A stretch of 64,000 nucleotides of DNA from the NCBI GenBank assembly GCA_951406725.2, contig OX597817.1, forward strand, positions 43,028,001-43,092,000. Reading direction: 5' to 3'. A program made the position numbers and the translations under genes. Below are positions 13,783 to 42,900 of this stretch, piece by piece (position 1 is the first letter of the stretch; each line of letters starts with the position of its first letter). The notes beneath the pieces were generated by a model, which saw only the letters and a program-made list of their open reading frames with translations, was not told where the DNA came from and did not search any database. This stretch comes from Octopus vulgaris (lineage: Eukaryota).

Positions 13783-15636
13783 GATTCTGATTCTGATTCT
13801 AACTTGCCTCAACCGGTCTTCACAAATAGAGTTTTGTGTCCCAAGAAGGGAAGGTATGCATAAGTGGGCTGGCTACATCCCATGTAGAAGGCCACGGGTT
13901 ATGGTCTCACTTGTCCTGCCGGGTCTTCTCGCGCACAGCATACTTCCAGAGGTCTCGGTCTCTAACCATTTCCTCAGTGAGACCTAAAGTTCGAAGGTCG
14001 TGCTTCACCACCTCGTCCCAGGTTTTCCTGGGTCTGCCTCTTCCACAGGTTCCCTCAACCGCTAGGGTGTGGCACTTTTTCACACAACTATCTTCATCCA
14101 TTCTCGCCACATGCCCATACCAGCGCAAACGTCTCTCTTGCACACCACATCTGATGCTTCTCAGGTCCAGCTTTTCTCTCAAGGTACTTACACTCTGTCG
14201 AGTATGAGTACTGACATTACACATCCATCGGAGCATACTGGCTTCATTTCTTGCGAGCTTACGCATATCCTCAGCAGTCACGGCCCATGTTTCACTGCCA
14301 TGTAGCATGGCTGTTCGTACACACGCATCATACAGTCTGCCTTTTACTCTGAGTGAGAGGCCTTTTGTCACCAGCAGAAGTAAGAGCTCTCTGAACTTTG
14401 CCCAAGCTATTCTTACTCTAGCAGTTACACTTTCAGCACACCCACCCCCGCTGCTGACTTGGTCACCTAGGTAACGGAAGCTATCAACTATTTCTAGTTT
14501 TTCTCCCTGGAAAGTGACAGAAGTTGGTTTCAGAGCATTTTCAGTGTTTATTGTTCCTGAGCATCTGCCACATACAAAAACCATCTTCCTAGTTAGCCTT
14601 CCTTTGACATTGCTGCACCTCTTATGTGTCCATAGCTTACACTTGGTGCATCTTATAGAGTTTCTACCTACACCTTTTCTACAGATCGAGCAGGGCCATC
14701 TACCTGAAGGCATTTGTGATTTGTCTACCTTCCTACTTATTACGACTTTGGTTTTAGCTAGATTGACTCTAAGGCCCTTCGATTCTAAACCTTGCTTCCA
14801 CACCTGAAACTTCTCCTCCAGTTCTGATAGTGACTCAGCAATTAGAGCAAGGTCATCAGCATAGAGGAGCTCCCAAGGGCATCCTGTCTTGAATTCCTCT
14901 GTTATTGCCTGGAGGACTATGATAAATAGGAGGGAGCTGAGGACTGAGCCTTGGTAGACCCCTACCTCTACCCGGAATTCTTCACTGTACTCGTTGCCAA
15001 CGCTCACCTTACTAGCAGCGTCCCTGTACATGGCTCGCACAGCTCTCACTAACCATTCATCTATCCCTAGTTTCCTCATTGACCACCAGATGAGGGATCG
15101 GGGGACCCTGTCGAAGGCTTTCTCCATGTCAACAAAAGCCAGATACTTGGGCTTGTCTTTGGCTAGGTATTTCTCCTGCAGCTGCCTTACCAGGAATATA
15201 GCATCAGTGGTACTTTTCCCTGGCACGAACCCAAACTGCATCTCATCTAAACTAACTCTCTCTCTAATTAGTTGGGTTATGACCCTCTCCGTAACCTTCA
15301 TCACCTGATCCATCAGCTTGTTACCTCTGTAATTATTTGTATCTAGGGCGTCACCTTTACCTTTGTAGCAGTTGACTATTATGCTGCTACACCAGTCATT
15401 GGGTATGACTCCTTCTTGTATCACCTGATTAACTATACGGGTGACTAGGCTATAGCTGACACTACCAGATATTTGAGCATCTCTGCAGTGATACCTGATG
15501 GGCCTGGGGCTTTCCCTGTCTTCATGCTTCTAATTGCCTTAACTACCAAGGAACTATCAACTCTGATAGCTGGTCCCTCTGTTGGGTCAACATTCAGCAG
15601 ACTCTCTTTATCCCATTCATTTTCTTTATTCAGCAA
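13783..15636 (-). mobile_element. 5'-truncated RTE-clade LINE; RT ORF 13907-15424 with a frameshifted upstream part
   Basis: QFGFVPGKSTTDAIF, QGSVLS, LLYADD, a C-x2-C/PHD-like insertion, and RLRWYGHV..GRPRKTW. Ends in a short tandem-repeat tail (GATTCT)x3. Confidence 0.95.
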
Positions 15637-19354: not shown

Positions 19355-20483
19355 GTAATTTATGATTTTGTTTTAGATTGTATTGACTGCTTTAAAGGTC
19401 ATTCCAACTGTGTATCAGGATCATATTATACAATCTTCTTGAACTCAGCACTGCAAGTTTACAAAGCATTTATTTAATATTATTTACAACCAAGTGACCA
19501 GGACATAAACAGTCTTTGCAAGAAATAAATAATAAAAGTTGTGGCAGTTGTGTACCTTAATAGCTACTGAAAGGATATTCATATTCATAGCTTTGTTATT
19601 TTGTTGATTTGGATAGGAGAAAAGTGCTGTGCCTGCAGATTTTGTCATCAATGTTGTTGAAATTTCTCTTTCAATATTTGCAAGATAACAGCTTCATGAA
19701 AACCACACTGGTAGTCATTGAGGAAGAAGAGGTTCATGGAGATAAAGGTTGTTTCCATCACTTTCATGCTGACTTGAAGCATGAGCTGAAGCTTTCTGTA
19801 GCAGGCCGATGTAAACAACCTCAGTTACAAATCATGATTTCCTGTCTTAGACAAAAGCTAAATGACACCAGGTGGGTTATATTGCTAAACAGAATAGACG
19901 AATGCACTAATCCTATTTTGAAAGAATTGTTCTCATTTATCTTGACATTAGAAACTTTTATCAGTAGTTTTAGTTTTGCTCTTATGTGCTTCAATATGTT
20001 CTAGAAAAGGTACAGGTGCACAAAATGAAAAGTGGCCACACAATGTATGCATAATGTGATTGTAAACATCGGATCTTTACCTTTTAACCGACAGATTTTT
20101 AAAATAATTTTTTGTAACTAAACACTTTCAAATTTCGGACACTGGTAGAATATGTCATATAAAACATCTTTTACTCTTAGCGTTTTTGAGAAAAGCTTAT
20201 ATTTAGGAAGTTATTTCACATTAAAGTTGTCGTATTTCAGTAATTTCAACCAATCAATGACGTACATTCAGCTGAATAAAATTACTGCTGTTGTTTGTCA
20301 ACAACAACTATCAGTGGAATATATTTCGTTTGTTACTGTTATTTATGACATCATTTGTGCATTTGTACTGGTTTTAGGGTTAGAGTTGTCATAAATAACA
20401 GTGATAAACAAAATATATTGATTCTAAGTTTTGTTTCAAAGCCTTTTCTATAACTCAACAAAATGTTTATGGTTTATTTGTAG

Positions 20484-22228: not shown

Positions 22229-24027
22229 CCAGAGAAGGATCCTTTTGCAGCTTCATTTGTAAATAGCCTTGAATAAAGCCATGTATATATAACTTTCATT
22301 TACTCAGTTTTCTTATTCATTTTTGTTGGAAAGTTCTTAAATAAGATCAATTGAGGATAGTTCCATATCTATGTTATTTCAAGCAAAATGTCTAACAGTA
22401 AGCTGTTTTACTACTTCACTTTTCAAGATGAATCTGTACAGTCATTAATTATTGAGTGTTCTATTTTTTTTAGATGAAACTATAAATTGAGCCTTTATTT
22501 TTAAATTATGAGCAATAATGCTCTTATCCCTTATGCCACTAATTTCAGTTTTTGTTGCAGAACACTTATACAACACTTTTTAAAATTGGAGCACCACCTT
22601 TAGTTAAGCAAATCGACCCCAGGATTTATTCTTTGTAAGCCTAGTACTTATTCTATTGGTCTCTTTTGCTGAACGTAAACACACCACCATTGGTTGTCAA
22701 ATGATGTTGGGAGAACAAACACACATATATATGATGGGCTTCTTTCAGTTTCTGTATACCAAATCCACTCACAAGGCTTTGGTCAGCCCGAGGCTATAGT
22801 AGAAGACATTTGCCCAAGGTGCCACACAGTGGAACTGAACCCAGAACCATGTGGTTCGTAAGCAAGCTACTCACCACACAGCCACTCCTATGCCTATTGA
22901 GAATCTATTTCACATAAAACATGGGTGTTGGTGCCACATAAAAAGCACCTGTATCAGTGCCGCATAAAAGTACCTTGTACACTGTAAGTGGTTGGCATTA
23001 GAAAGGGCATCCAGCTGTAGAAACCATGCCAAAACAAACATGGAACCCAAGCAGCGTAGCAAAAGACGTTTATAACGCTATTTCTGTAAATTGCCTCAAA
23101 GAAAGCAGTGTTTATATTAAATGTTTTGAACATAGAAGGTAATCATTTACCTATCAAAGTGTATTAGCATTTAAGGTTAAGTACACATTTAGGACAACAC
23201 TTTTTAACCTATGTAATTTCTAGTGTCAGCTACTATCTCGGGTCAGGTAAAATTTCCCCCATCATTCCTGATGATTTTATTTAATATAATTTATGCACCC
23301 TTAAAGTTTATTTTTATTCTTGTGAGAAAAATGCATAAATTACATTGGTTTATACAGTATATCACACAGGAGAAAAACAAGGCATCATGTTCATATAGAT
23401 TCATCATTTATTTACCAAATTGGAAGTTGTGAGAATTATAAAGTAATTCACAGCAAAAATAGGTTTTCTGTTCTTTAAACCTCTTTGATGTTTAAGATGG
23501 CATATGGACTTATATTCACAAGATAGACCAGCTTTCTGTAATTAAGAAGAAAAAAAGTTTCAATGAACAATGAAAAATATTAGACTTTATGAAAATATCA
23601 AATGTTTAACCCTTTTGTTATAATTATTACGCTGGAACAAAGTTACGTGAAATTCTGAGGTTTTAATTGAGATCACTGTATAAGTTTGTATCACAGAACC
23701 GAGAACAACCTCATTTGGGTTAGTGTCAAAAGCGTTGACGAATTTGTACACATTTTTCACATGAATAAATCAACTTTTTGTGTGGCAATAAATTTTTTTT
23801 AAATAACAGAAAAAAACAAGAGGCTCTAGAGATTGAGATACAAAGGTATTGCAGAAAACTGGAGGCTTTAACTTCTGGACCCTTATTTATGCAATGACAT
23901 ACGAGCTTGGATGAAATTTTCGATTATAATACAGGTGGTTAATTTGGGACAAAGGGTGTTTCTTAGCAGAAAGACTCGACCTGAAGATTATGTAACATTT
24001 AATGATTTCATGTTTAGCATAAGAATA

Positions 24028-24138
24028 AACTCGCTCAGTTTTAACTTTTCTTCAATGAGAGCCAGAGGCATTTACTGACAGCAGGCAACTGTCTGCACAC
24101 TGCACCATCAGACGCAAATTACCACATCATTGCAAGTT
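24028..24138 (-). ncRNA. SNORD16: Box C/D snoRNA U16-like, copy 1
   Basis: Terminal stem AACTTGC/GCGAGTT, C box ATGATGT, guide GGTAATTTGCG(T) followed by D' CTGA, GACAGTTGCCTGCTGTCA element, D box CTGA. Confidence 0.88.
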
Positions 24139-25411
24139 TGATCATCTTCAAGCACTACATAGACAAATATAAATGTAATTAAACGGTAAGCTATTGTAGT
24201 AATGATATATTAATCCTGGTTTTAAGTATTGTGATACATATCTCTGAAACATTACAATATTCCAAGAATAATCAGTCATAAAATCTTAGAATCTGTTATA
24301 TCACAATACTACACAGTGGCTGAGCTACGAAATCCTCATTGGCACTGTTATATTGCAATACTACACAGTGGCTGTGTGAGCATCTCATCCTCGTTGCCAC
24401 TGTTATATCGCATGTTCGGATGACCTCTACTCAACTCTCAACGTCTAGGCTTCTCCCTCTATATCTACGTGTTGGGCTAGTCTACTTCATCGTCTGGGGG
24501 TGTTGACACAACAGAATCATAAAATCACACCAAAGTATGAGGCAAGGATAAATAATTGTCACCATACATATGTTAAAAAGAAATTAGAAAAGCACAAGCC
24601 ATTGGAAAACAACTGATTATTTAACATTGTGAAATCCTCCTATTTAGGCTAGTTTATTAATAAGCTGAATAGACGGCCTTCATACTAAAATCACAATTTA
24701 GGTTTTACTACAAATAGTAACAGTACTTTTAACCACATCTACAATATCCCAGTCAAGATACATTATTCTGCCAGCACACAAACCTAATTACTTTTGCTGA
24801 TGATTATTATGATAAAATTACATCTCTTCTTTCCTGGACAATTTCTTTGCCATAAAAATTTTTATTCCTTGTTTTATCTAATCATATTTTATGCTACACA
24901 TTTATTTTGCTGTACTTTACAATTTATAACCAGTTGGTATTAGTTTCATTAAAAAACTACAATAACAGCAAAACTTTGACTACACTCAAGCTTAATCCTT
25001 CTTTTGCTGGTTACTGTTATGGTAAATAAAGATCATGCAACTTTGCTTATTCCCTTGCACCACATAAAACCAGAGTTCAGTAAGGTATCATGATAATTTT
25101 GTTTGCTTACCATACTGGTATAGGTTGAACAACTTTTAGAGATAGTGTTTTACAACCAGAAGCCTTTGTAATAACTTCTTACAACTTGGTATATCAATAT
25201 TATGTACATCAGTCTAAACCCCAAATTATTAAAATACAAGAATAAACTTTCCATATTACATAAATTTTAAAAAATCAATTTTTCAGTTTCAATGACAGTT
25301 TAAATCAGATTATGCAAATAGTTTCAAACAGTTAAATTTGGGATGAGGTGACTGGTATTGAAAGGCTACCCTGAAATTCACATAACATGTTTAAGTAGAA
25401 GCATTTATATA

Positions 25412-25522
25412 AACTCGCTCAGTTTTAACTTTTCTTCAATGAGAGCCAGAGGCATTTACTGACAGCAGGCAACTGTCTGCACACTGCACCATCAGACGCA
25501 AATTACCACATCATTGCAAGTT
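25412..25522 (-). ncRNA. SNORD16: U16-like snoRNA, copy 2
   Basis: Essentially identical to copy 1. Confidence 0.88.
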
Positions 25523-25997
25523 AGCATCAGGTTTAAACACAACACAGGCATCAATGTAATCAGATGTCATGGTTACAATAAACAGACTTGCTTTTGGTGA
25601 GAAAGAGTAAGAGAAAAATAAAACCATATGGATATTTACCTGCAAATTTTACTAAAGAAAAAAACTACAAAAAGGTCAAGGGATAACCTTTTTTTATTTT
25701 ATGATGTCCATGTCACTAATTGCAATTAATTTTATTACTAAGACCCATCAAGCTGAGCAAAATCACAGTTGTGGCAGATACCAGTGTCAAGCAAATTGGC
25801 ACCTGTGCCAGTGTCACGCAAATGGCACCCACTCTCAAAGTGGCTGGCGTTCCAGTTTTCAAAATAATCTAACCTCAAGTAAATACACTATAAGCATTTA
25901 AATAAACAAACCTATTTTTTAGTTATTTTCAGCTCAATCATTACAGGACTGAGGTTTTGACTTGGAAGATTTTTCAACAAGACGGTAAGAGTAAATG

Positions 25998-26108
25998 AAC
26001 TTGCTCAGTTTTAACTTTTCTTCAATGAGAGCCAGAGGCATTTATTGACAGCAGGCAACTGTCTGCACACTGCACCGTCAGACGCAAATTACCACATCAC
26101 TGCAAGTT
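25998..26108 (-). ncRNA. SNORD16: U16-like snoRNA, copy 3
   Basis: C box GTGATGT; guide, D box and stem intact. Confidence 0.87.
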
Positions 26109-26900
26109 AGCATCAGGTTTAAACACAACACAGGCATCAGTATCTCATCAGTTGTCATGGTTACACTAAACAGACTTGCTTTTGGTGAGAAAGAGTAAGA
26201 GAAAAATAAAACCATATGGAGACCATCATTTGCTACTAAACAATTATCATTACTTCTGCTGAACATAATTATGGTGGCCAGTGTAAGTCATAACATCCTA
26301 TGTGACATAAATTCACCTGCAAGCACATTTATCACTCAGTCCTATGCCACCAGAATTGAACCACTCATATTTATATTCAAAGGAAGATATGAACTCTAAT
26401 CTGAAGAAAGAAACTTTAATCCATTTACCATTTATTCATATTTTGTAATGTCCACTATTAAAATTGATCTGAATATTGTTGAATTTTTGCAATTTATTTT
26501 GGAAATTATCTTGCCTTCAAAACTTCTATGCATACTTGACTATGTTGTTTCTGAAGGGAAAAAATTAATTTACTACCTGTAAATCTTATTTTAAAAATCT
26601 ACAAAAAGGTCAAGGGAAAACTTTTTTGTTTTTTGCTTATGATGTCCATGTCACTAATTGCAATTAATTTTATTACTAAGACCCATAAAGCTGAGCAAAA
26701 TCGCAGTTGTGGCAGATACCAGTGTCACGCAAATGGCACCCATTACACTCTCAGAGTGGTTGGCATTCCAATTTTCAAAATCGTAAATACACTATAGGCA
26801 TTTAAATAAACAAACCTATTTTTTAGTTATTTTTAGTTCAATCATTACAGCACTGAGATTTTGATTTGGAAGATTTTCAACAAGATGGTAGGAGTAAATA

Positions 26901-27011
26901 AACTTGCTCAGTTTTAACTTTTCTTCAATGAGAGCCAGAGGCATTTATTGACAGCAGGCAACTGTCTGCACACTGCACCATCAGACGCAAATTACCACAT
27001 CACTGCAAGTT
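26901..27011 (-). ncRNA. SNORD16: U16-like snoRNA, copy 4
   Basis: Boxes, guide and stem intact. Confidence 0.87.
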
Positions 27012-27484
27012 AGCATCAGGTTTAAACACAACACAGGCATCAATGTAATCAGTTGTCATGGTTACAATAAACAGACTTGCTTTTGGTGAGAAAGAGTAAG
27101 AGAAAAATAAGACCATATGGATATTTACCTGCAAATTTTACTAAAAAAAAACTACAAAAAGGTCAAGGGATAACTTTTTTTTATTTTATGATGTCCATGT
27201 CACTAATTGCAATTAATTTTATTACTAAGACCCATCAAGCTGAGCAAAATCACAGTTGTGGCAGATACCAGCGTCAAGCAAATTAGCACCTGTGCCAGTG
27301 TCACGCAAATGGCACCCACTCTCAAAGTGGTTGGCATTCCAGTTTTCAAAATAATCTAACCTCAAGTAAATACACTGTAGGCATTTAAATAAACAAACCT
27401 ATTTTTTAGTTATTTTCAGCTCAATCATTACAGGACTGAGGTTTTGACTTGGAAGATTTTTCAACAAGACGGTAAGAGTAAATG

Positions 27485-27595
27485 AACTTGCTCAGTTTTA
27501 ACTTTTCTTCAATGAGAGCCAGAGGCATTTATTGACAGCAGGCAACTGTCTACACACTGCACCATCAGACGCAAATTACCACATCACTGCAAGTT
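27485..27595 (-). ncRNA. SNORD16: U16-like snoRNA, copy 5
   Basis: Boxes, guide and stem intact. Confidence 0.87.
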
Positions 27596-28376
27596 AGCAT
27601 CAGGTTTAAACACAACACAGGCATCAGTATCTCATGGTTACACTAAACAGACTTGCTTTTGTTGAGAAAGAGTAAGAGAAAAATAAAACCATATGGAGAC
27701 CATCATTTGCTACTAAACAATTATCATTACTTCTGCTGAACATAATTATGGTGGCCAGTGTAAGTCATAACATCCTATGTGACATAAATTCACCTGCAAG
27801 CACATTTATCACTTAGTCCTATGCCACCAGAATTGAACCACTCATATTTATATTCAAAGGAAGATATGAACTCTAATCTGAAGAAAGAAACTTTAATCCA
27901 TTTACCATTTATTCATATTTTGTAATGTCCACTATTAAAATTGATCTGAATATTGTTGAATTTTTGCAATTTATTTTGGAAATTATCTTTTCATCAAAAC
28001 TTCTATGCATACTTGACTATGTTGTTTCTGAAGGGGAAAAATTAATTTACTACCTGTAAACCTTATTTTAAAAATCTACAAAAAGGTCAAGGGAAAACTT
28101 TTTTTTTTATGCTTATGATGTCCATGTCACTAATTGCAATTAATTTTTTACTAAGACCCATCAAGCTGAGCAAAATCGCAGTTGTGGCAGATACCAGTGT
28201 CACGCAAATGGCACCCATTACACTCTCAGAGTGGTTGGCATTCCAATTTTCAAAATCGTAAATACACTATAGGCATTTAAATAAACAAACCTATTTTTTT
28301 AGTTATTTTCAGTTCAATCATTACAGGACTGAAATTTTGATTTGGAAGATTTTCAACAAGATGGTAGGAGTAAATA

Positions 28377-28487
28377 AACTTGCTCAGTTTTAACTTTTCT
28401 TCAATGAGAGCCAGAGGCATTTATTGACAGCAGGCAACTGTCTGCACACTGCACCATCAGACGCAAATTACCACATCATTGCAAGTT
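28377..28487 (-). ncRNA. SNORD16: U16-like snoRNA, copy 6
   Basis: Boxes, guide and stem intact. Confidence 0.87.
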
Positions 28488-29279
28488 TGATTATCTTCAT
28501 ACAACATGTATCATATTAATGTAATTAAAACAAAGCTGTCAGAGTAACAATATTAACTCCGACCCTATGATGTATTGCAACATAGCTATCAGCAAAAATC
28601 TCACTATGGATAACAAAAGTTACTCCATTTGCTATTAACAATATCCATCCATAAAACCTTAGTTAAGTAAATTGTATCAAAATATCAAGCAGTTATTGGA
28701 TTGAGTTACAAGAAACACCTAACTTCAGATTAAATAACTGTCATCACTGAAAAACCAATCGGGAGTACAGTTTGGCCACCAGATTACTCAAGACATTATG
28801 AACACTTTCACGAAACGATGATGTTCTACTGCAACAGTTATGATGATGACAAATCTATGAAATAGTAGCTGTAAAAGGACTTCCTCAGGTTTCTTACTGA
28901 TTCCTATATATATTTCCTTATTGCCCACAAGGGGCTAAACACTGAGGGGACAAACAAGGACAGACAAAGGGATTAAGTCAATTACATCGACCCCAGTGCG
29001 AAACTGGTACTTTATTTATCGACCCCGAAAGGATGAAAGGCAAAGTCAACCTTGGCGGAATTTGAACTCAGAACGTAACGACAGATGAATTACTGATGAG
29101 CATTTCGCCCGGCACACTAACGTGTCTGCCAGCTCACCGCCTTAATTCCTGATTCCTATATATTGCATCCTTTTCCCCATGAATTGCAATTTCTATCAGA
29201 ATTATAACTGATCCCCTCCATGAAATCTTATAACAACATTTCATAGAGGGGATACTATATCATATTTCAACGTTAAATC

Positions 29280-29388
29280 AACTTGCTCAGTTCCAATGTT
29301 CTTCAAAGAGAGCCAGTGGCATTGTTGACAATAGGCAGTTGTCTGCACACTGCACCATCAGACGCAAATTACAGCATCACTGCAAGTT
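29280..29388 (-). ncRNA. SNORD16: U16-like snoRNA, copy 7 (divergent subtype)
   Basis: GTGATGCTGTAATTTGCGTCTGA; the region before the D box is GAACATTGGAA; unique flanks. Confidence 0.82.
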
Positions 29389-30089
29389 AACACCTCAAAG
29401 AAAAAAAAAACCTTTGAATTTTCCATATCCAAGACTAATTCAATGAGACACCAAATATCCAACTTAATTACTTTATATGTAAATTCCAAAAATAATTTGG
29501 TAGAAATTGATGTGATAATTGATATAACCATAATTTATACAAGTTACTTCTCTGGCTATTTCTGTTGGGTGTTCAAGCCAGTATAGGTAATATTTTGTGT
29601 TGTATTACCACAAGATGAATTACCAACTGCATGCCATTACCAGTTGTCAACCAGGTAGACTCAGAAGTTTGTAGCATGCAAGAGTTTTAACATCACTTGT
29701 CACCAATCCTGTACCTCAACTTAATAGCATGAATTCTCATTTACCACACAGTGGGGTATTTACTATACAGGGCAAGGGGGGGCTCCGAAAGGAGTCTCAG
29801 GGAGTAGCATCCCTGCCTTCCTGAGCTAGTTTTCCACAACATTTCTTAAAGTGATCAACCTTGGTTGCTATGGCATTGAGGTAGATTTAGCCACCCCCGT
29901 TAACGCAGACAAAACATTTGCTCCTTCAATATCATACACTTTCCAACCTGAATCTCTCAGTTAACACACTGAGAAGACCTAAGAGGCACTGCAGATAATT
30001 TTTTTCTACTTAGTTTTAAATTATCATACAAAATAGCACGTAAAATTACAGAATCCTTAACCAAATTTAATGAATTCTTCGCTTCAATT

Positions 30090-30199
30090 AACTTGCTCAG
30101 TTTAAAACTTCTTCAATGAGAGCCAGTGACATTAATTGACAGCAGGCAACTGTCTGCACACTGCACCATCAGACGCAAATTACAGCATCATTGCAAGTT
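30090..30199 (-). ncRNA. SNORD16: U16-like snoRNA, copy 8
   Basis: ATGATGCTGTAATTTGCGTCTGA...CTGAGCAAGTT; unique flanks. Confidence 0.84.
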
Positions 30200-30769
30200 A
30201 GCTCTACACTATAGTACAAAAATATCACCAAACAAAGAGGGAAAAATTCTTGTTCCTGAAATGACAGGAATATGTTGCAAACTTAGCCTTAATAGAATAT
30301 TACTAGTGGTAAATACGTCTACAACAAAATACTTTCTTACATCTTGTATTCATATCATACACCAAGCAAATAAAATCAAAAATCTTTTAATTATTCCCAA
30401 CCGGCATCAATATGGTATTGAAGAGTAAGTTCTCAAATAAACATTGAATAATGTGACACCAGAATATTGAATATTCGTGTTCTAGAATGTGTAATATTTT
30501 TTCACACTACTAGCCATTGAAAACACAAATGAGCTGAGCCAGGTGCACTGAAATGTGAAAAGTCATCATAGCCTATCTCATTAGTTTTAAAAATAAACAG
30601 GCATGGATGTGAGATAAGTTTGCTTTCCAACCACATGGTCTTGAGTTCAGTCCCACTTTGTGGCACTTTGGTCAAGTGTCTACTAATGTCTTCTTGTCTT
30701 GAGACAGCATTCACCCAGGGTGGGTTGAGCTGGCTTCATTCATCCTCAATGCTGCATCTCTCACAAACG

Positions 30770-30985
30770 CAGATCAGGCCTGGCAATTTGAGGCTAACGA
30801 CCGCATGATCTCCAACCACTCCTTATTCCAGCGGCGAATGCCATAGACATAGGGGCCTAGGTTGGGTTCCAGATCAGCCTTGACTGTTGTTAGCCAGGTT
30901 TTTCGTTGTCCACCACATCGCTTTCGCCAACCCTGAAGGGGAGCTGGGGCAATTGCTTCGTAGATGAATTCTGCTGGTCTACTAC
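30770..30985 (-). mobile_element. RTE-like LINE 3' fragment
   Basis: GWRKRCGGQRKTWLTTVKADLEP resembles an RTE C-terminus. Confidence 0.6.
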
Positions 30986-31307
30986 TGTAACCATGAGCCA
31001 ATCAAAACCTTGAAAAGACTTGGCATAAATAAATGTCTGTATGTATTATCATCTCCTTGCCTTGATGTTGTGCAATAGTGGTAAGCAAGTGTCACCATCG
31101 TGCAAGCAGTGTCCATTTCAAATCTTGCATGAAAACATGTTGGGGTCATCAGAAATGTCTGCTTACGATAGAAAATGTGTCTAAACAAATTCCATCTGAC
31201 CCATGCAAGCATGGAAAAATGATATTAAAACAACTATTTTTATATATGTATTACATAAATCTATAAAATTAGCAGAATTATATAAAAATACTTGCAGCAA
31301 TACCAAT

Positions 31308-31413
31308 AACTTGCTCAGTTCCAATGTTCTTCAATGAGCCTGTAGCATTTTGACAATAGGCAGTAGTCTGCGCACTGCACCATCAGATGCGAATTACAGC
31401 ACCATTGTCAGTT
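31308..31413 (-). pseudogene. Degenerate U16-like snoRNA, copy 9
   Basis: C box mutated (ATGGTGC), guide GTAATTCGCAT, 5' stem disrupted; D box intact. Confidence 0.7.
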
Positions 31414-32287
31414 GATGACACAATTAAAGTATCAATTATAATTGAAAAAAATTTACATCCATTTTACAGTTGTTGAGAAAAGAATTAAGCTTCACGTAGA
31501 GCAGGGATCGGCAACTTTTCATCAACTGGAGGCCACATTATACCATTTCCAAGTGGGAGAGGGCCACATGCATGAAATATTACTTGCCCACTTTTTGTTT
31601 CTATATATTTTCTGCAGAAGTCAATTATAATCTTCTTTGGGATTTATTCAAAAGCAAATAACTATTCCCTTTTGTTTCTAATTCAAGAGTTCCATATGAT
31701 AATAAGGACTAACTGCTATGAAAATGCAGGTATGACTCACTTTGCAACCACATGGCTTCAAGATCAGTCCCATTGCATGTCTTTCTCCTACTATAACTCT
31801 GGGCCAAACAATGCCTTTTGAGTCTATTTGATACATTGCATGTTTGGGCACATGCTCCATTGAATTTTGTGTAACCTCCACCACTGCTCAACAGCTGGTG
31901 TTGCTTTGTTTATGCTCCTATAATTTAGTGATTTCAACAAAAGAGACAAATAGAATAAGTACCAGAGTTTAAAGAAAAAAGGAAAACTGAATGAAATTAG
32001 GGTATTTTTGCCATAAATATAATGGGTATTTGGGACTAATGGCTAAAAACACATTACATTATATATTGACTTTATATATCACTATAGTTTTAGCTTTTTT
32101 TTTTTTGTCAAGTTACATTCCAAGTACTACTGTAATACATTGTTATATTTGTTTTACAAAATCACTATATAAACTTTTAAGAGACATAGTGCGTTTTTAA
32201 TTAGAAATATTGTAGCAAAAAAAGTATCGATGAAAAGAACTTACCATATTCTGTATACAAGCAGGCTAAAACCTTCTGTATGTTTTG

Positions 32288-32365
32288 CTAAACGCAATTA
32301 AATGGCGGTTCACCACCATCGTTATATTTTGCAGCAATGACAGTTCTGATGTCTTTCATGGTAGT
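32288..32365 (-). CDS. GIY-YIG-like protein / snoRNA host gene, coding exon 4 (exon continues to a donor at 32245)
   Basis: tttag|TTMKDIRTVIAAKYNDGGEPPFNCV*, then 43 nt of UTR and a G|GTAAGT donor. Confidence 0.75.
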   Translation of the reverse strand, partial: TTMKDIRTVIAAKYNDGGEPPFNCV

Positions 32366-35318
32366 CTAAAAATTACAAAAATACATGTTAGCATATTTAT
32401 TAAGCATATAAATTGTCATTTTGTTAATAATATATTCAGTAAGTACATTAAATAAGAAAACTAAAATATTGTAAAAAATTATTACATTTTCTGATTACAA
32501 TTCAAAATGGAAATATTGAATTCTTAGAATCGATAACACTGTAGAAGCCACTTATTGAGATCATTTTAGGATAGAGCCTTTTAGATAACAGTAACTGGTA
32601 GATAACATTAAGCAGATGATATAACAATATTCTGTGCATGTCTCAGAGCCACTAATTTCAATAACTAAATGATAATAATGATTTAGTAACACTGAACAAG
32701 ATCATCATCAGCTGCTATCAATTCATTTGAAGAGTGGCATAGCATTTTTACTTATTTCACTTGACATGGTCCAAACTTTAGCAGAAATAGTACAATATGC
32801 CAGTGCTGCCTTGACTGGCTCTTGTGTCAGTGGCATGTAAAAAGCACCCACTATACTCACGGAGTGGTTAGCGTTAGGAAGGGCATCCAGCTGTAGAAAC
32901 ACTGCCAGGTCAGACTGGAGCCTGGTGCAGCCTCCTGGCTTCCCAGACCCCAGTTGAACTGTTCAACCTATGCTAGCATGGAAAACGGACGTTAAACGAT
33001 GAAGATGATGATGATTCAATACATTATAGCACTTAGATTTGTACTTCAGGATATCATCATCATCATTTAACATCTGCCTTCCATGCTGGCATGGGTTGAA
33101 AGTTTCTACAGGGTCCATGAATTGGAGAACTGCATCAAACTCCACTATCTGCTTTAAAATGGTTTCTATGGCTGGATGCCCATCCTAATGACAACCGTTT
33201 TACAGAGTGTATTGGGTGCTTTTTTCTTGGGTGCCAGCACTAGTGAGATGGCCATACAACTAGCAAGATTAAAAAGACCCCCTTAACTGAGCGAGAGCAC
33301 AACTGGTGCTCTGACAGCAACAACATTGAGGGTTCCAGTTGATCCAATCAATGTTAACAGCTTGCTCATGAAATTAACAAGCAAGTGGCTAAGCACTCCA
33401 CAAACAGGCATACCCTCAACATAGTTCCCGAGGAGATTCAGTATGATACAAACTGTGACAAGGCTGGCCCTTTGAAATAAAGATACCACTCATTTTTGCT
33501 GGTTGAGTGAACTGGAACAACATGGAATAAAATGTCTTGCTTAAAGCCACAACGCACTGCCAAGAATTGAACTTTGCAACATTACAATCGTGAGCCAAAT
33601 ACTCTAACCACTAAGCCATGTGCCTTCACTGGGTAGGAGTATAGTAAAAAGAGAGGCAGCATAATGCTAGATGTTGAGTGATTGAAGTAGGATATAGGGA
33701 TGGGAAATGGTTTCTTGCTGTAAAGGAGATACAGTGCTACCCTCTTTTACTCGTTTCAGTCATGTGACTGTGGCCATGCTGGAGTACCGCCTTTAGTCAA
33801 GCAAATCAACCCCAGGATTTATTCTTTGTAAGTCTAGTACTTATACTATTGGTGTCTTTTGCTGAACCGCTAAGTTATGGGGACATAAACACACCAGCAT
33901 TGGTTGTCAAGCGATGTTTGGGTGGGGGGGACAAACACAAACACATATATATATATATATACATACAACGGGCTTCTTTCAGTTTCCATCTACCAAATCC
34001 ACTCACAAGGCTTTGGTCGGCCCAAGGCTATTGTAGAAGACACTTGCCCAAGGTGCCATGCAGTGGGACTGAACCCGGAACCATGTGGTTCGTAAGCAAG
34101 CTACTTACCACACAGCTACATAATATAAAGGTGGGTGGGAGTAATTAGGGAGAAACTGGAAAGAGTAATAAAGATGATGACGCCAAGGTATAAGAAGGTA
34201 AATAGAAGAGAAAGTAGAAGTAGATCAGGAAGGGTGGGCAGGTAGAGTTTGCAAGAGCATGGGGTAATTGTAAGAAATGGTTTGAGATGAAGGCAGTGAA
34301 CTGTAAATGAGGACAATACTAAATATGGAGGGGAAGGTGATAAGAAGCAGGGGTGGAGGTGACGACAAGCAGTACAGAAAGGTTGAAAAGCAGCAGCAGA
34401 ATAATAACCCACTGACAACGCCTGTCGTAAGTTTTTAAGTTTTCCAATCAACAAAATCTTTAGCAACAGGTGGGTAACCAGTGGGTTATAGTTTTATAAC
34501 ATAGTCAATTGCTAGTTGTGTCTATCTTCCAACATCCATGATTCAACATGCCGATCCTGTGGAGGAAACCTGTGGAAAAGGTAGACCCAAGAAGACACGG
34601 GACAATGACAAGTGATTAAGATCTTTGGGGATTTACTGGGCATAACTACAGATTTCTGCCCCACCCCTTTGGAAACACCCGAGTGGGGAATAGTTCTCAA
34701 AAATAACCCCCAATTGTTTTCCCCCAAAATTCCTATGTCCTCAGAATCTACATAGTCTGAGGTATATTTGTAGAGAATTTCATTTAAAAATATCCAGTGA
34801 ATTTTCTGAAATTCCCCACCCTCTCATAAAACACTTCCTCCAAAAAAATTTTGCATATTCAGAATCTACATGATATAACACATAGTCATAGAAAATTTCA
34901 TTAAAAAATATCCATTTTTCTGTTTATGATCATCCAAAGTCAGCGGGGTGCAGAAATCTGTAGTTATGCCATGCCATTTACTGTACATGAGAAGACATGT
35001 GAAATTAGTTTCACTGACCAATGCCAGTGACACAGAGTGGTTGGCATTAGGAAGGGCATTCAGCTATAGAAACCAAGCCAAATCAGACTGGAGCCCTGTA
35101 CAGCTCTCTGGCTTACCCATCCCAGTCAGCCCATCTAACCCATGCCAGCTTGGAAAACGGATTGCTAAATGATGATGATATTGATATATATATATTGCAA
35201 ATGTACATTTGTGTAAAATCAACTTGCTTGAAAAATGTTTGTAAAAACAACCAATAATCCTAAACACCTCAAAGCAGACTATGTACATTTTTCCAATAAT
35301 AAACGGAATACAAATTAC

Positions 35319-35600
35319 CTTAAAATCAGGATATGGAATCCACTTCAGAGCAAGCAATCTCTTACGATCGGTCTTAGAAACTGATGACAAGTATTTGGTA
35401 ATTGGTTTGCATGTCTTGCAGGGGCCAAATAAGCGGTTTAGTTCTAAACGGATATCTCCTTCACCAACATACAGCGTTATCCATGTTTTACTAAATTTAT
35501 ACCAGCGAAGTACTATATAAACACCTTCCATGGAATTTGGCCGTGCGTCATACCTCTGAAATGTTGCATTATACAAACTGTCTACGAATGCTTCTGTTTT
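35319..35600 (-). CDS. GIY-YIG-like protein, coding exon 3
   Basis: cttacag|KTEAF...EGVYIVLRWYKFSKTWITLYVGEGDIRLELNRLF...KWIPYPDFK|gtaatt; 282 nt, phase 0 at both ends. Confidence 0.8.
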
Positions 35601-36084
35601 CTGTAAGAAGAGAACATTTCAAAACTTACATTTCACTAAAGATAATGAAACAGATTTTAGCTAAGATCCAAAAGGACATGATACAGAGAAAAAAATAATC
35701 TAGTCAGTACAATCCTGGAATAGCTTCTAAAATTTTTAGTTAACAGTAGAAGTTAATAGTTAGAGTTAACAAACATGAATAACTAATAATTACTAGTTAC
35801 ATCAATAATCATGCAATAACACATCTTTAAAGCTTAAAGTATGACAAGAAACACAGTAACATTTCTCTATTCTACTTGTTAAAAATGAGCTAGATAAATG
35901 AAGAGGGAGCAGACACTTAAGTCTACATAGAGTGATGTATTTCAATATTTAGTTTGAGGATTTGTACATGGCTGCTGGGAGAAAGAGGAACCGCAGAAAT
36001 TCCAGAGTTGTAGCACAGTCCTACATAGTACGATCTGTGCAAAACTCTTAGCATGGAATGTGGGAGATGAAACACAGTATAAAT

Positions 36085-37175
36085 ACAAAGGTGGGCTGAA
36101 AAGTTCATAGGCTATGAAGGAGTGATGCTAGAGTTGTGAAATCTCACACACATAATTTCAGCTCTTCTTAATAACTGCATTGTTTCTTTCCAAGTAAACT
36201 GGCAGTTCAAAGACTTCGAAAGTAAGCAGTAGTGACTTCTCTTGAAAATGAATTTGACCTTGTGGTGCTATCAAGTACCTGCAGAATGAGTTTAGCCACC
36301 AATGGCTTTCATGCTGACTTGGTTGTTACATTAGGGGATGATGCTCCAGCTTTATCAACAGTGCAAAAGTGAACAGCTGAATTTAGGAGAAGGGAGGGTG
36401 TTGAAGGTGGCCCAAGATCTAGACGTCTTGCAACTGCCACCATGAAGGAAAACATTGGTCATGTTCACCAAATAGTGATGGATGACAAATAGTTGACTAT
36501 AAATCAAACAACCAAAGTTATAAGCATATCCTGTGAGAGAGAGTTGAGAATATTCTACACAATGAACTTAGCATGATGAACATTTCTGCTCAATGGGTGC
36601 CACATCTGACAGCTGTTCAAAAGCACATCAAGTTGATTACATCACCGGAAAATGTGATACCGTTTGAGGCAGAACCAGCTGGGTTCCTTGAACATTTCCT
36701 AATCCAGGATGAGGGTTAGGTTCATCACTTTGAACCAGAGACAAAGAGACAATCCATGCAAAGGAAACATCCCTTCTCACCTGCTCCAAAGAAAGCCAAC
36801 ATCATTTCATCTGCAGGGAAAGGGATGGCTTCAGTATTTTTGAAATGCAAAACGCATTGTGTTTATCTACAAAAAGGCAACACCATCAGGACTGCTGTGC
36901 ATAATTGTAGCTTTGAACTGGTTTATCACCTTATTCTCCCAATTTAACACCATCTATCATGTCCCACAACATGAAAAAACACTAGACTGGGAACCAGTAT
37001 CGGTGATAACATAATATCCAACAGGATGAAAGCTCTTTCACCAATGGGATCCAAGCACTGCAACACCAATGGAAGGAGTGTGTAAACCACAAGGGGGACT
37101 ATGTTGAAAAATAAACCTCATTTGGTCACATTCTATGAGTATCTTGGTCAACCTATGATCTTTTCGGCCAACCCC
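36085..37175 (+). mobile_element. Decayed mariner in host-gene intron 2
   Basis: Remnant WVPH, QDE..VHHFEPETKRQSMQ and GDYVEK motifs; TIR remnants GGCTGAAAAGTTCATAGG / CCTATGATCTTTTCGGCC; many stops and frameshifts. Confidence 0.8.
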
Positions 37176-37728
37176 CAGTTAAATGGTCTTCTTTTGGACA
37201 CAATCTAACAAGGTTTCAAACCAACAAATGAGCAACAGCTGGAAATCATAAACAGGCAATTCAGTTAAGCTTCCATATTAGATACAGTTGAAGGATTTGT
37301 TTCTGTCACCATTGCTTTCATGGAAATTCTTAATGGCAAAGAACCAATAGTCAAGAATAGACCAAATCTTAAATAGATCTAGATCTATGGAAGCCCATAC
37401 AAACAATAACTGTCAACTGATCTATGTAAACTAATAACAATGACACAACTGGCCAAGTCTTATCATTTATGTTAACACAAGCTACACAGATCCAAGTGAT
37501 CGGATATTGGTATTACAGGTAAGCAAATGTTTCAAAGCAATATTTTTTTAGTTCAATCACTCAACAACATGCTTGCAAGTCATCCATCTCAATTCAGTTA
37601 CTTCAATCAGTTTGTCGAGACATCTTAAAATGGACTTCATAATGCTATTTTAATTTATGCTGCTTTGCTGAAAAATGGAATACTTTTTCTTAGACAAGGC
37701 ATTTCATCAGCTCATATGCAATACTTAC

Positions 37729-37792
37729 ACTGTCTAATGGAGCTTTTGTTTTGTTTACTTGAGCAGGCGCGATAGTGGCCCCACCAGCTGGC
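37729..37792 (-). CDS. GIY-YIG-like protein, coding exon 2
   Basis: tttctag|..PAGGATIAPAQVNKTKAPLDS|gtaagt; phases fit exon 1 (phase 2) and exon 3 (phase 0). Confidence 0.72.
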
Positions 37793-38737
37793 CTAGAAAT
37801 AACAATAAATATTAGCATCAGACAAGACTTAGAGAAACAAAAAAGTGGATGCATTTAAATAGACTGGTCAAATTAACTGAGAGAAATGGTTAATGAATAA
37901 AATAAGGAAGGATTTACCCTAACTACTTTCATTATTATTTCACTTTTCTAGAAAGAGCAATTGTTCTTTAATAACATTTCTTCTATTGAGATTGATCATA
38001 ATCATTTAACGCCTGTTTTCCATGCTGGAATGGGTTGGACGGTTTAACCAGATCCAAAAAACAGGAAGATTGTATCAAGTTCCAATGTCTGCATTGGCAT
38101 AGTTTCTATGGCTGGATGCCAACCACTTTAACAGTGTAACAGTCTGACATTAATTGAAAAAAAGGAAAAATACATTCGCCTAGAATTTCAGAGAAAATAA
38201 TTAAAATTTTCTCGAAAATATGTTCCTTTAAATGCACACACACACACATCAAGTGGCAAAAGTAGGCTAGAAAAGTTACGAATTGGAAGATTGTTTGGCA
38301 ATATGGAAATTAGATGTGTTGACATTCATTTTTTTAAAAGTTGTCAGTATTAAAAGTTATTGGTATTAATTTATGTTTACATAAGATTAAATTCCAAGTA
38401 CATAGAATTTTGCATTTCAAATTTATTAGAAATTGTGCTAAGGTCGAACTTCAAAGATTTAAGATTATTCCAACATAGTGTCTTATTTGCCGCAACAAAA
38501 AAGCCCGAAGTTCTGACAAAATAATCGGTTTTACTAAGATTGAAACTTGCCATCAAGTACCTAAAAAGAATAATTGTGTGTAAAAAGTGAACAGCTAATG
38601 AAATGAAGTCTGAACTGGAACAAAAGCTCTAGCTCCGAGAGGTAGAATTTCATATAAAGCTAGCAAGAGATAGATCGTAAGATTGCCATATATATATATA
38701 TGTTAGAAGTATTAGGGGTGATGTACAGATTTGATAC

Positions 38738-38932
38738 ATATGAAAGAAAATAGTGTTCAGAATGCTGGATGGTTGTAAAAATATATATTTATTTACATAT
38801 CCCATATTATTTCTACATATTAGCGCTACAGGAGTAGTTGAAAGCGCTTATATGAAGAAATAATATGTGATATGTAAATAAATATATATTTTTACAACCA
38901 TCCAGCATTCTGAACACCTTTTGCTTTCATAT
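38738..38932. repeat. Near-perfect ~195 bp palindrome (hairpin MITE-like)
   Basis: TGTTCAGAATGCTGGATGGTTGTAAAAATATATATTTATTTACATATC is mirrored at about 38869-38916, with a short loop. Confidence 0.9.
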
Positions 38933-39745
38933 ATATATATATCAAGACTTCTCACAATTTTTTAAATCTTATGACGAGTTAAATGAATTGGATTTGGGGA
39001 TAGAAGATAGCATATGAAGTTAAAGCACAAAACCGGTCATTGTAATACGGTCTCGATCGTTTAGTGGGTATTCACCAAAGTTTTATCAATACTTTCTATA
39101 CGGGAAAACTATCATACACGTACTAGCGTAATCATCTCGTACGAGACTTAGGTGTCTATTCAAATGAGTAAAAATATATTATAAAGAAAGAAATACATGA
39201 ATAACTTCCAAAAATCCAAAGTGTCTGGTAATATTGACACGTGACAATTTCTTAGAACTTAAAATACATTCCTCAGTGCAGCTATTTATAATACTTTCTT
39301 AGAAGCCCCTTAAATTTGAGACAAGGGAACAGTCGGTTATACTGAATCTAATACTTTGGTGCTATATTTCATCGATCCGAAAGGATTAAAGTTGATCTCG
39401 GCGGAATTTGAACTCAGAACGTTTATGTGCAAGAATAAATATTTCCTTATAAATTAATAATTATGAGAAATAGATAAAAAAAACAAAAAAAAGCTTAACG
39501 GAATAAATTTGAAGAATGGTGTTAGTTTGAGAATTAAATTTTCAGTAACGAAGATGATCTCTCCTGTTTAACTAATTATTTAAATAGGACTCTGGATATA
39601 TGGAGGAGAAACGAAGAATAAAAGTGACGAGAGTTAAAAAGGGAGTGAGAGAGAGAGAATATGAGGAGACATGTGCTACTTTGGGTGTATGGCCACCATG
39701 TTGTAAAATAAAGTAGAAAAATTACGCGATTTTCGACCAACTTAC

Positions 39746-39780
39746 GGTTTGTAAGCTTGCTTATTCTTTTTGCGTGCCAT
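39746..39780 (-). CDS. GIY-YIG-like protein, coding exon 1 (alternative in-frame ATG at 39786)
   Basis: MARKKNKQAYKP|gtaagt with an in-frame upstream stop. Confidence 0.72.
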
Positions 39781-39895
39781 AGTCATTTATCAATATCACA
39801 AGAGTTGGTCTGCTTTAAAAAGGTTAGAGCAACAAAAAGACAAAGTTTGCGGAACTCTCAGAGAACAGGTCAGGTAGAGATGGAGAGCCACGCTT

Positions 39896-39910
39896 GAAAA
39901 GGAAGGAGGA
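39896..39910 (-). promoter_or_regulatory. TCT/5'TOP-like initiator
   Basis: TCCTCCTTCCTTTTC contains YCTYTYY, about 120 nt upstream of the ATG. Confidence 0.55.
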
Positions 39911-42900
39911 GATAATTGCAACGTTCAACTACGCCTGCGTCATTATACTATGGAATGAAAGAATAGTCAGAATTGCAGAAGTATGGATGGACAGATATTC
40001 GTGATTAATTCTCAGTAAACCACGAAAAGCAATCTCTAGTTTTTACTGATAGGAACAGGACTTTGTCAAATCTCTAGAAAACCATAGTCGACGAATCACA
40101 TGAAATATCTATGTAAAAGAAGTAGGAATTTAAGCGTATTTCCCTACCGACTTTGTTTCCTCACTACTATCACAGAAATGGGAATAAGTGGCACAATTGT
40201 GTAATCTCTAGTTGTTACTGATTGGAACAGGACTTCATTAAATCTCGAGAAAACCATTGTCGACAAATCATATGAAATATATATGTAAAAGAAGTAGGGG
40301 ATCTTTTCACTTTGACCGGCAGATTTAAGTGAAATCATCCGAAGTAGGAATTTAAGCGTATTCCTCTACCAATTTTGTTTCCTCATAACTATCACAGAAA
40401 TAGATATTAGTGGTAGAGGACGAGTGGCACAATTGTGTAGCTATGCCAATTTAAGTATGGATGCTAGTACGACAAATAATTCTAGTTCTTTTCTTGACGA
40501 TCATTTTGTTTTCACTTCCCCGAGTTTTGATTTTCTTTAAGTTTTACAATTGAATGATTATAATAATAATGTTTCCAATTTTTGGCTCGGTACAAGAAGT
40601 TTTTGAGAGTGGGGCAGTCGATTACATCGAACCCAGTTCTTGACATGGACTTATTTTACCGACCCCGAAAGGATGAAAGGCAATATCGACCTCGGCGAAT
40701 GAATGAAAATAAGAAGAATAATGCTCTTGCAGTAAGAATGTTAATTAAATGATGATAATAGCAATAATATGTTAAAATACAAATGAAGAAAACATTATTC
40801 TGTATTGCATAGAGAATTTTTGGCCCATATTCGACAACCACCAGGCTCATTATGTACCAAGGTTGGAAAACATGAGCAGAAGTTTAAAAACTAATCATTG
40901 ACAAAAATCCTAAAAGACAGTAAAAACGGCACAATATACTCCCATATCGCCTTCTTTTTTTTAAGGATTAATTTGTAATCATCAGAATTTAGCGCGATTT
41001 CTTTTCAATTATAGTAAATAGAAATGGAGTTGAGAAGAAAGTAGGTCTATTGCAGAATAACTAAAATAATAATAATAATCCTTTCTACAAAAGACACAAG
41101 ACCAGAAATTTGGGGGGAGGAGACTAGTCGATTACATCGCCCTCGGTGCGTAACTGGTACTTAATTTATCGACCCCGAAAGGATGAGAGGCAAAGTCGAC
41201 CTCGGCGGAATTTGAACTCAGAACGTGCAGACAGATTAAATACCACTAAGCATTTTGCCCGGTGTGCCAACGATTCTGCCCGCAGCGCTCTTAACAAATT
41301 CGTTTTTCGTTTATCGCACAATTTTTGTTTTTGCATATTAGCTATTCTTTTGCTTTCCGCTCAATCACAGTGGCCTATAGGTAACCGCCAGATGTACTAG
41401 AAATAATAACCAAGTCTCCTTCATCAATCGGCAAAAATCAAATCGCTTCCAAACAAATACACTTTTTCTTTAAGCATTTCTATGTAAGAAAGATGGAAAT
41501 AAATTAATGAAATGAAATAACTTTTAAACATTTTAAAAATTACATTATAGACCGAAAGTTAAAAAAGCAGGAGACACGGAATATCAAACAGGTTTTGTTA
41601 AAACATCTATTTGATAATTATATAAAGAGCCATTTAGAAAGTACGAAATTTACTTTAAAAAAGGTTGTGACAAAGGATATAAAGCAGTAATAATTCAGTT
41701 CCAAAACCGGTTGAATGTGTGGTTTACAAGCTCGTTTTGCAACTATGTGCGTTTGGGTTCAGTTCCACTACGCGACCCATTGAGCAAGTATTTACTATAG
41801 TCCCGGGCCGACCAATATGCTGTGGGTGAATTTTGCAGACGGAAACTAAGGGAGCCCGTCGCAAGTATATATATATATATATATACATTTGTGTATTTGA
41901 ATTTGTCTCCTACCACGGCTTGACAACCAGTGTTGGTTTGTTTGCGACCCCATGATTCAAGGGTTCGACAGAAAGAGCCCAATAGAACAAGTACCAGACA
42001 TAAAAATGTCATTGGGGGGGGGGGTATTCTACTAAACCCTTTACAGTGGTATCCAAGTGTGACAAAAGTCCAATGATTGAAACATCTAAAACAGAGAAAA
42101 TAAGTTTTTCCTTGTGGTGTACCTGAGCACTGTATACAATAATTTCATTATTATCTCAGCAGAATTAATTCAGGTCAATAATCATACCAATGTCTTTTAA
42201 TTTCTTGCTTATATTTGATGATCATTTCCAAGAACAACTTTAAATGAGCCCAGAAATAGTACAGGTGAAGAATTTTTCCACCCTTTTGAATGTTATACAT
42301 GAGCCAACAAATTCATCATTGAACCGTGTTGTAGACTTTATACATCACTTTCTGTGTGTCATTTCTTGGAAGTTTGCTCACCTTTAGAGTATTGTACTTC
42401 AGATCCACACCACAACCACTGCACTGTCTGAAATTTTTTAGATGTAGTTGTAAGATGATGAGCTGCCAGAATCATTGGTGACCAGTGATAAAGTCACAAT
42501 TTTGCTTGGGAAAAAAAGATACAATTAATTTATGGTGGCCAGTAATAAAGTCACAGGGAAAAAAGTCACAATTAATTTATGGGATCTAGATGAAACCCCC
42601 TCAGACACACACACACATACATCCCCACCTGGACAAAACCTGTGACTTTTTTTACTTGGATTCGAACCATTAGCACACCAGGCAAAATGCTCAACAGCAT
42701 TTCATCAATCTTTATGTTCTGTGTTCACATTCTGCGAATGTTGACTTTGCCTTTCATCCTTTTGAGGTTGATAAATAAGTACCTGTTGAAGACTAGGAAC
42801 AATGTAATTAACTTACCATCTCTCTTGGAATTGCAGGCCTTATGCCAAAATTTGAAACCAATATTCTAATAGTTGTAACCTTTGTATAACTGTAACGCTT

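Follow-up and report, generated by a model that had tools for sequence, protein, structure and literature searches.

A nine-copy array of U16/SNORD16 box C/D snoRNAs within one 3'UTR intron of a protein-coding gene in Octopus vulgaris

The window analysed here is a 64,000-nt stretch of the Octopus vulgaris genome (contig OX597817.1, positions 43,028,001 to 43,092,000), and positions refer to it unless a chromosome is given. Its minus strand carries a tandem array of nine small nucleolar RNAs (snoRNAs) of the SNORD16/U16 box C/D family, and all nine lie in a single 8,709-nt intron of the main mRNA of a protein-coding gene, in the 3' untranslated region (3'UTR). This shared intron was missed by the initial annotation, which was made from the sequence alone. 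Animal box C/D snoRNAs are thought to need an intron of their own, because their release relies on splicing and on trimming from both ends. For the octopus array, endonucleolytic release of the copies from a polycistronic intron is the best inference, and we give it an even chance of being right.

The array and its host gene

A scan of the minus strand from 23500 to 32000 gives nine units of 106-111 nt each between 24028 and 31413, and these ends agree exactly with those of the initial annotation. Scores below are for the Rfam SNORD16 model (RF00138, clan CL00046; gathering score 45 bits).

24028..24138, minus strand: U16 copy 1 (3'-most); boxes all intact, 11-bp 18S guide; 52.3 bits
25412..25522, minus strand: U16 copy 2; body identical to copy 1, flanks unrelated; 52.3 bits
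25998..26108, minus strand: U16 copy 3; 54.2 bits
26901..27011, minus strand: U16 copy 4; 52.3 bits
27485..27595, minus strand: U16 copy 5; 50.9 bits
28377..28487, minus strand: U16 copy 6; 55.1 bits
29280..29388, minus strand: U16 copy 7; old and diverged, boxes intact, 10-bp guide, one compensatory change in the internal stem; 43.6 bits
30090..30199, minus strand: U16 copy 8; diverged, boxes intact, 10-bp guide; 50.1 bits
31308..31413, minus strand: U16 copy 9 (5'-most); C box ATGGTG, terminal stem broken, guide misfits 18S; 27.1 bits

The match spans 100 of 100 model positions in every copy. Seven copies score above the gathering threshold (50.1-55.1 bits), and the other two are copy 7 (E 1.7e-5) and copy 9 (E 0.43). 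The array is real and its copies belong to SNORD16/U16, as had been proposed; automatic genome annotations probably already label them SNORD16. Each copy has the same order of elements, namely terminal stem, C box, guide, D' box (CTGA), 5-bp internal stem, C' box (TTGAAGA) and D box (CTGA). The D', C' and D boxes are present in all nine, and the C box is RTGATG in all except copy 9; the base that follows RTGATG is T or C, not A, which matches the Rfam consensus. The 7-bp terminal stem is perfect in six copies, has one G-U pair in copies 1 and 2, and is down to 4+1 bp in copy 9. The full set of box C/D features (C, D', C' and D boxes plus terminal stem) is found in eight of the nine, so that the earlier description of boxes and stem holds throughout for D' and D and breaks down for the C box and the stem in copy 9.

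Genome-wide searches (2.8 Gb) returned at least nine matches to the DNA of copy 2 and at least eight to RF00138; these counts are lower bounds, and all of the matches are within the array. The U16 unit is therefore not a dispersed transposon fragment, a possibility that the initial annotation itself had raised.

The host gene lies on the same strand and has the following parts.

39746..39901, minus strand: host exon 1; ATG at 39786; RNA-contig joint 37791-39745
37729..37792, minus strand: host exon 2 (coding); RNA contigs
35319..35600, minus strand: host exon 3 (coding; GIY-YIG-like core); RNA contigs
32245..32365, minus strand: host exon 4; 43 nt from the end of the stop codon to the last splice junction
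23536..32244, minus strand: host intron 4 (8,709 nt, GT...AG, 3'UTR) with all nine copies; RNA contigs
23300..23535, minus strand: host last exon (3'UTR); 3' end approximate; AATAAA at 23412-23407 and 23318-23307

RNA contigs of four runs were aligned to 27620-40200, a stretch that ends short of copies 1-5. Within it, GT-AG joints connect exons 1 and 2 (runs X14 and X5), exons 2 and 3 (X7, X14 and X5) and exons 3 and 4 (X14 and X5). Contigs with loose ends at 32245 in X7, X14 and X5 continue with the start of the exon at 23535; the contigs bridge 32245 to 23535, and therefore the main mRNA removes all nine copies as one 3'UTR intron. This mRNA departs from an arrangement of one snoRNA per intron and has that of a cluster with several per intron. 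One contig starts at about 39901 in a C/T tract that resembles a 5' terminal oligopyrimidine motif, which is a weak hint only because contigs cannot show where transcription starts.

The coding exons (39786-39746, 37792-37729, 35600-35319 and 32365-32245) encode a protein of 154 amino acids. The initial annotation stated that nothing of the array appears among the open reading frames; of the host gene, exon 3 does occur in the stop-to-stop list. Its product is 98% identical to that of O. bimaculoides and 81% to that of Argonauta hians. The protein belongs to a mollusc family that has no Pfam name. It has 19 relatives at E values up to 0.001, one of which is a repeat artefact, and named sources among them are a bivalve, Solemya velum, and a gastropod, Babylonia areolata. 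Its structural model (predicted local distance difference test, pLDDT, 86.9) is closest to T4 EndoII (Z 7.2, root-mean-square deviation 2.7, 95 residues aligned), R.Eco29kI (6.7), UvrC (6.0) and I-TevI (5.5), all GIY-YIG structural Z scores being below 8; ESM Atlas features give 0.95 for GIY-YIG, and bacterial look-alikes occur in the ESM Atlas. The likeness to GIY-YIG nucleases appears to be one of fold. The Pfam GIY-YIG model matches none of 19 family members, and in the family alignment (A3), inspected by eye, neither Arg nor Glu is invariant at the helices where they would be expected. We take Tyr, Arg, Glu and Asn to be the catalytic residues concerned. The host protein is probably inactive as a nuclease, judging from these columns, and we see no link between it and snoRNA processing.

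Duplication history, selection and guide targets

Copies 1-6 are mutually 96-100% identical. Copy 8 is 89-91% and copy 9 is 77-79% identical to them, and copy 7 is 83-86% (83-87% with copy 8 included). The nine units are not all independent repeats: copies 2-6 stem from a duplication that carried their flanks with them.

25406..28487, strand not assigned: recent tandem duplication; period ~1,487 nt, 97% identical, over an older 450-590-nt duplication (~86%); origin of copies 2-6

The duplicated blocks (25406-27011 and 26895-28487) are 97% identical with flanks included, and flanks outside the recent duplication are at the alignment background of ~50-65%. That the locus is a transposon fragment or an assembly artefact is exceedingly improbable. 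It would accord with the 97% identity between the two copies of the 1.49-kb unit, but there are no dispersed copies among the genome-wide matches listed, and copies 1, 6, 7, 8 and 9 each have distinct flanks. Moreover, 9 of the 16 listed differences of the RNA contigs are the letters of the other duplication unit, and contigs of run X5 carry both letters at 28036 and at 28061, so that the duplication is probably real. Copy 1 combines a copy-6-like upstream flank with a body identical to that of copy 2, a pattern that recombination inside the RNA (conversion or crossing-over) appears to have made.

The older copies differ from copy 6 mainly outside the 44 key positions. Copy 7 has 1 difference at key positions and 15 at the 67 others (P 0.002), and copy 8 has 1 and 8, respectively (P 0.065); the sole key difference in each looks like a gap placed by the aligner in C', and the C' box is actually intact. 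These counts support selection on the RNA in copies 7 and 8. Copy 9 has six key differences, the C box among them, and is probably decaying. Selection had originally been read from copies 7-9, which keep the snoRNA while their flanks differ; this stands for copies 7 and 8, where key positions are spared, and is not supported for copy 9. One compensatory pair on the named stems is within the range of shuffles (34 of 500), and an RNAalifold consensus of the copies has no covariation and pairs the boxes unrealistically.

When the D' guides are paired with the 18S rRNA of this genome, copies 1-6 form 11 Watson-Crick pairs and copies 7 and 8 form 10, and shuffled guides (of copies 1, 7 and 8) reach 8-9 bp at most. 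The initial annotation assigned the guide GGTAATTTGCG to the array as a whole; this 11-bp guide is present in copies 1-6 only, with copy 9 mismatching 18S at +2 and +5. The base at D'+5 of the guide opposes the first A of the 18S stretch GCGCAAATTACC, which is position 685 counted from the Rfam start of the 18S gene, and the proposal that the D'+5 rule selects the A equivalent to Am484/Am436 is borne out in eight of the nine copies. We take this A to be the Am484 equivalent on the Rfam family match and on rRNA numbering. Eight copies are thus likely to direct 2'-O-methylation of 18S at the counterpart of human A484. In humans U16 guides Am484, and its depletion lowers the mark (PMC3035437); Am484/U16 corresponds to yeast Am436/snR87 and to plant Am438 (PMC8817022). 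The octopus copies share with vertebrate U16, yeast snR87 and Arabidopsis AtU16 the covariance model, the D'-box guide, the internal stem and the equivalent 18S adenosine (Am484/Am436/Am438). A possible second guide at the D box was sought in copies 1, 7, 8 and 9, but its pairing with 18S and with the 5.8S/28S stretch does not exceed that of its shuffles (longest runs 3-8, shuffled means 5.5-7.0).

The guide of copy 9 pairs 13 consecutive nucleotides with 5.8S rRNA (12 Watson-Crick, 1 G-U), and both of its changes convert G-U to Watson-Crick pairs there; copies 7 and 8 also pair there, using three G-U pairs. Twenty shuffles reach a Watson-Crick run of 11 at most, against 12 in copy 9, and the post hoc chance is 0.004-0.04. 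The +5 base falls on 5.8S G69 (position 69 of the Rfam model), which is not known to be methylated. Retargeting to the U96/SNORD96 site was considered and rejected, because the guide points to model position 69 and not to Gm75, which by human numbering we take to be model position 74, and because the C box is broken. Gm75 is given as the SNORD96 site in 5.8S by PMC7812721. Two further genome matches to the copy 9 guide pattern are inside a repeat, without a C box and without a snoRNA match. A drift of copy 9 to a new target, with both guide changes perfecting the 5.8S pairing, is improbable, and decay is the more likely fate of this copy.

Proposed release of the copies from one intron

The same layout appears to recur at a second locus in this genome. 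A 46-kb scan of RPL4 (C3, ~75.04-75.05 Mb) gave five SNORD18/U18 copies (four above the cut-off, one at 40.5 of 41) and no SNORD16. This answers the question, posed by the initial annotation, of whether RPL4 introns still carry U16, and its call of a non-RPL4 host, here the 154-residue GIY-YIG-like gene, was correct. Other families were located as well.

G000:C3:75046562-75051771 (L023:2562-7771), plus strand: five SNORD18/U18 copies in one RPL4 intron
G000:C2:106457186-106461623 (L025, L026): six tandem U14 copies plus one truncated, within 4.4 kb; further C/D-like elements upstream
G000:C21:35140543-35155052 (L027, L028): two U15 copies 14 kb apart, with a SNORD52-like match beside the second

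All five U18 copies map to one 6,975-nt RPL4 intron whose flanking coding exons join in frame, and on this DNA evidence they appear to share it. With six tandem U14 copies and five of U18, the number nine is by itself unremarkable. Only three U15/SNORD15 matches were listed, so not every family is amplified; a SNORD36 search gave no match, and its control search was likewise silent. The nine-fold amplification in a non-RPL4 host is as real as had been claimed, but its significance and that of the host switch were overrated, both being common.

Host switching by U16 is ordinary among other animals. A scan of metagenome contigs for the U16 pattern gave 47 loci, of which 42 were examined after five second windows on the same contig had been dropped. 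Hosts in these contigs are RPS23 introns, a gene with an RRM domain and RPL4 (L075). Of the ten two-copy contigs with placeable exons, seven have one copy per intron (L043, L046, L051, L054, L059, L071 and L075; L051 and L059 look like the same sequence) and three have both copies between adjacent RPS23 exons (L036, L050 and L053). Same-intron pairs thus occur elsewhere, and nine in one intron is the extreme. RPS23-hosted copies (measured in L050 and L051) are 500-1,900 nt from the next exon, versus 65-82 nt in the RPL4-hosted L075. Frogs are described as having more snoRNA copies than humans, with snoRNAs moving between hosts (PMC6984369). Humans have one U16 copy, in an RPL4 intron, and three U18 copies beside it in separate introns (PMC3035437). 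In the octopus, by contrast, nine U16 copies share one 3'UTR intron of a gene unrelated to RPL4, the D' box is the canonical CTGA, and RPL4 carries U18 alone.

Intronic snoRNAs are described as being released by splicing, debranching and exonuclease trimming, with one snoRNA per intron as the predominant rule in animals and with some frog-oocyte snoRNAs released independently of splicing (PMC11028025). Several snoRNAs in one intron need more than splicing and trimming for their release. Clusters of this kind are found in Drosophila, where H/ACA loci are clustered and C/D loci are one per intron (PMC3089462), and among rice intronic snoRNAs; the octopus array, unlike the Drosophila H/ACA clusters, consists of nine repeats of a single box C/D family, and it belongs to a mollusc. 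Two snoRNAs in one mammalian intron yield sno-lncRNAs (long non-coding RNAs ended by snoRNAs; PMC11028025), a system with two snoRNAs and no internal release described there, versus nine rRNA-guide copies here.

We favour endonucleolytic release of the octopus copies from a polycistronic intron. Core snoRNP (small nucleolar ribonucleoprotein) proteins would assemble on each copy in the pre-mRNA or lariat, aided by the 7-bp terminal stem, whose help is proposed because the 3' splice site is kilobases away for most of them. An endonuclease would then cut the spacers, EndoU being a candidate and an RNase III-like route equally possible, and exonucleases would trim the pieces to RNAs of ~100 nt. 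The array may have grown by unequal crossing-over and gene conversion inside the intron, and would serve gene dosage rather than new targets. The argument for cutting is that trimming alone cannot free internal copies, yet the internal copies 7 and 8 look constrained: their key elements are preserved although the flanks are no more alike than background, a sign that mid-intron copies matter. Intron 4 shows no enrichment of acceptor-like or AG|GT recursive-like sites (2.5 per kb, versus 4.6 per kb in the snoRNA-free host introns 1-3, at the stricter cut-off), and this lack of an excess of hidden splice sites likewise favours an endonuclease. We also count as support the recurrence of the layout, in the five U18 copies of the RPL4 intron and in the U16 pairs that lie between adjacent RPS23 exons in 3 of the 10 two-copy contigs. 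EndoU was first described as releasing snoRNAs from Xenopus introns, for U16 and U18 in frog oocytes, where each has its own RPL4 intron. These are the same two families that are stacked in single octopus introns, and an EndoU gene is present on C28 of this genome. XendoU is named as an enzyme that releases intronic snoRNAs in PMC11961692.

Several points weigh against this reading. The array is known here from DNA and assembled RNA contigs, which are blind to mature snoRNA, cleavage and methylation; contig depth cannot rank parts of the gene and gives no evidence for mature snoRNA. The presence of an EndoU gene says nothing of its use on this intron. U is not strikingly enriched near the copies (fraction 0.32-0.50, versus 0.34 in the intron), and BLAST found no motif common to the spacers. 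Copies 1 and 2, which are identical without their flanks, illustrate that conversion can mimic selection. As for hidden splicing, the weight matrices rest on no more than 14 acceptors and 14 donors from this genome, and the RNA evidence covers the 15 listed joints, out of a set with 213 further, weaker ones, of contigs aligned to 27620-40200; assembled contigs drop rare splice forms, so such forms may exist. Because only 43 nt separate the stop codon from the last junction, an mRNA with a further 3'UTR exon would be a target of nonsense-mediated decay (NMD) and stay invisible. Copies 1 and 2 have an acceptor of real-range score 48-54 nt downstream (95th and 97th percentiles). Around U18, an AG-ending motif (TTAG) is kept with each unit ~40 nt downstream, directly after four of the five copies and displaced by an insertion in the fourth, and it may be a cryptic acceptor.

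These last points feed an alternative that we consider unlikely, in which each copy does have its own intron, bounded by rare 3'UTR mini-exons or recursive sites, and the isoforms are lost to NMD so that only the exon-skipping mRNA is visible. Under the 50-55-nt rule of NMD, the 43-nt distance makes every extra exon a trigger. Acceptors lie at +54 (copy 1) and +48 (copy 2), no spacer is without an acceptor-like site of score 6 or above, and CAG|GTAAAT sites occur at 27128 and 25639; human hosts of several snoRNAs are reported to make many NMD isoforms (PMC4233243). On the other hand, the density of such sites does not exceed that of control introns or antisense strands, seven of the nine copies are without a real-range acceptor at +25 to +65, no joint from exon 4 into the intron is among the 15 listed, and run X14 has unspliced contigs across several spacers.

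Less likely again is that no internal cutting occurs, and that trimming to the outermost snoRNPs leaves one U16 per transcript or sno-lncRNAs, the extra copies being largely redundant and homogenised by recombination. Mammalian introns with two snoRNAs behave in this way (PMC11028025), and the recent origin of copies 2-6, the conversion seen in copies 1 and 2 and the decay of copy 9 all fit; the old internal copies 7 and 8, which keep boxes, guide and stems (with one compensatory change), would be hard to explain if they never acted. A promoter inside the intron, giving a separate polycistronic or non-coding host transcript, is very improbable. Independent snoRNA clusters are the norm in plants (PMC11028025), and spacer contigs do exist in the RNA runs, but such contigs are also expected from pre-mRNA and host introns 1-3 are covered too, the copies are all in host orientation, and the parallel RPL4 case sits in a classic host gene. 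A broader reading, which we hold to be less likely than not, is that octopuses routinely stack box C/D guides in single introns (U16 nine times, U18 five times in RPL4) and free them by a plant-like polycistronic endonuclease route, possibly with EndoU.

Surroundings and significance

The neighbours of the host gene are COMMD1 at 2243-2623 (minus strand) and a PWWP-domain gene at 60419-60703 (plus strand), and an exon with a weak Maelstrom-domain match (E 0.0065) at 19594-20001 (plus strand) faces the host 3' end. The window also contains a tRNA-Lys(UUU)-like gene at 9595-9686 (minus strand) with an intron of ~20 nt after the anticodon loop. Similar full-length genes number at least 40 in the genome, clustered on C9 and C6; an intron in this isotype is unusual for animals. 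By eye, we recognise a 540-residue reverse-transcriptase frame of a long interspersed nuclear element (LINE) at 13907-15529 (minus strand), a mariner-like transposase fragment at 1216-1506 (plus strand) and a Helitron/PIF1-like helicase fragment at 49661-50212 (minus strand).

A literature search on octopus and mollusc arrays and on animal single-intron C/D clusters, which reached few subscription journals and no supplements, found no published description of the locus, and the giant-squid genome paper only counts snoRNA loci (PMC6962438).

The RNA and its target are textbook, and it is the genomic layout that is new. U16 changes its host freely among animals, from RPL4 to RPS23, to an RRM gene and to a mollusc gene without a named function. 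Amplification is less striking than the initial annotation held; what raises the importance of the locus is a testable breach of the one-per-intron rule. With nine copies in one spliced intron, and with sequence differences that distinguish the copy classes 1-2, 3-6, 7, 8 and 9, the array is a natural test of an endonucleolytic route against sno-lncRNAs and against introns hidden by NMD.

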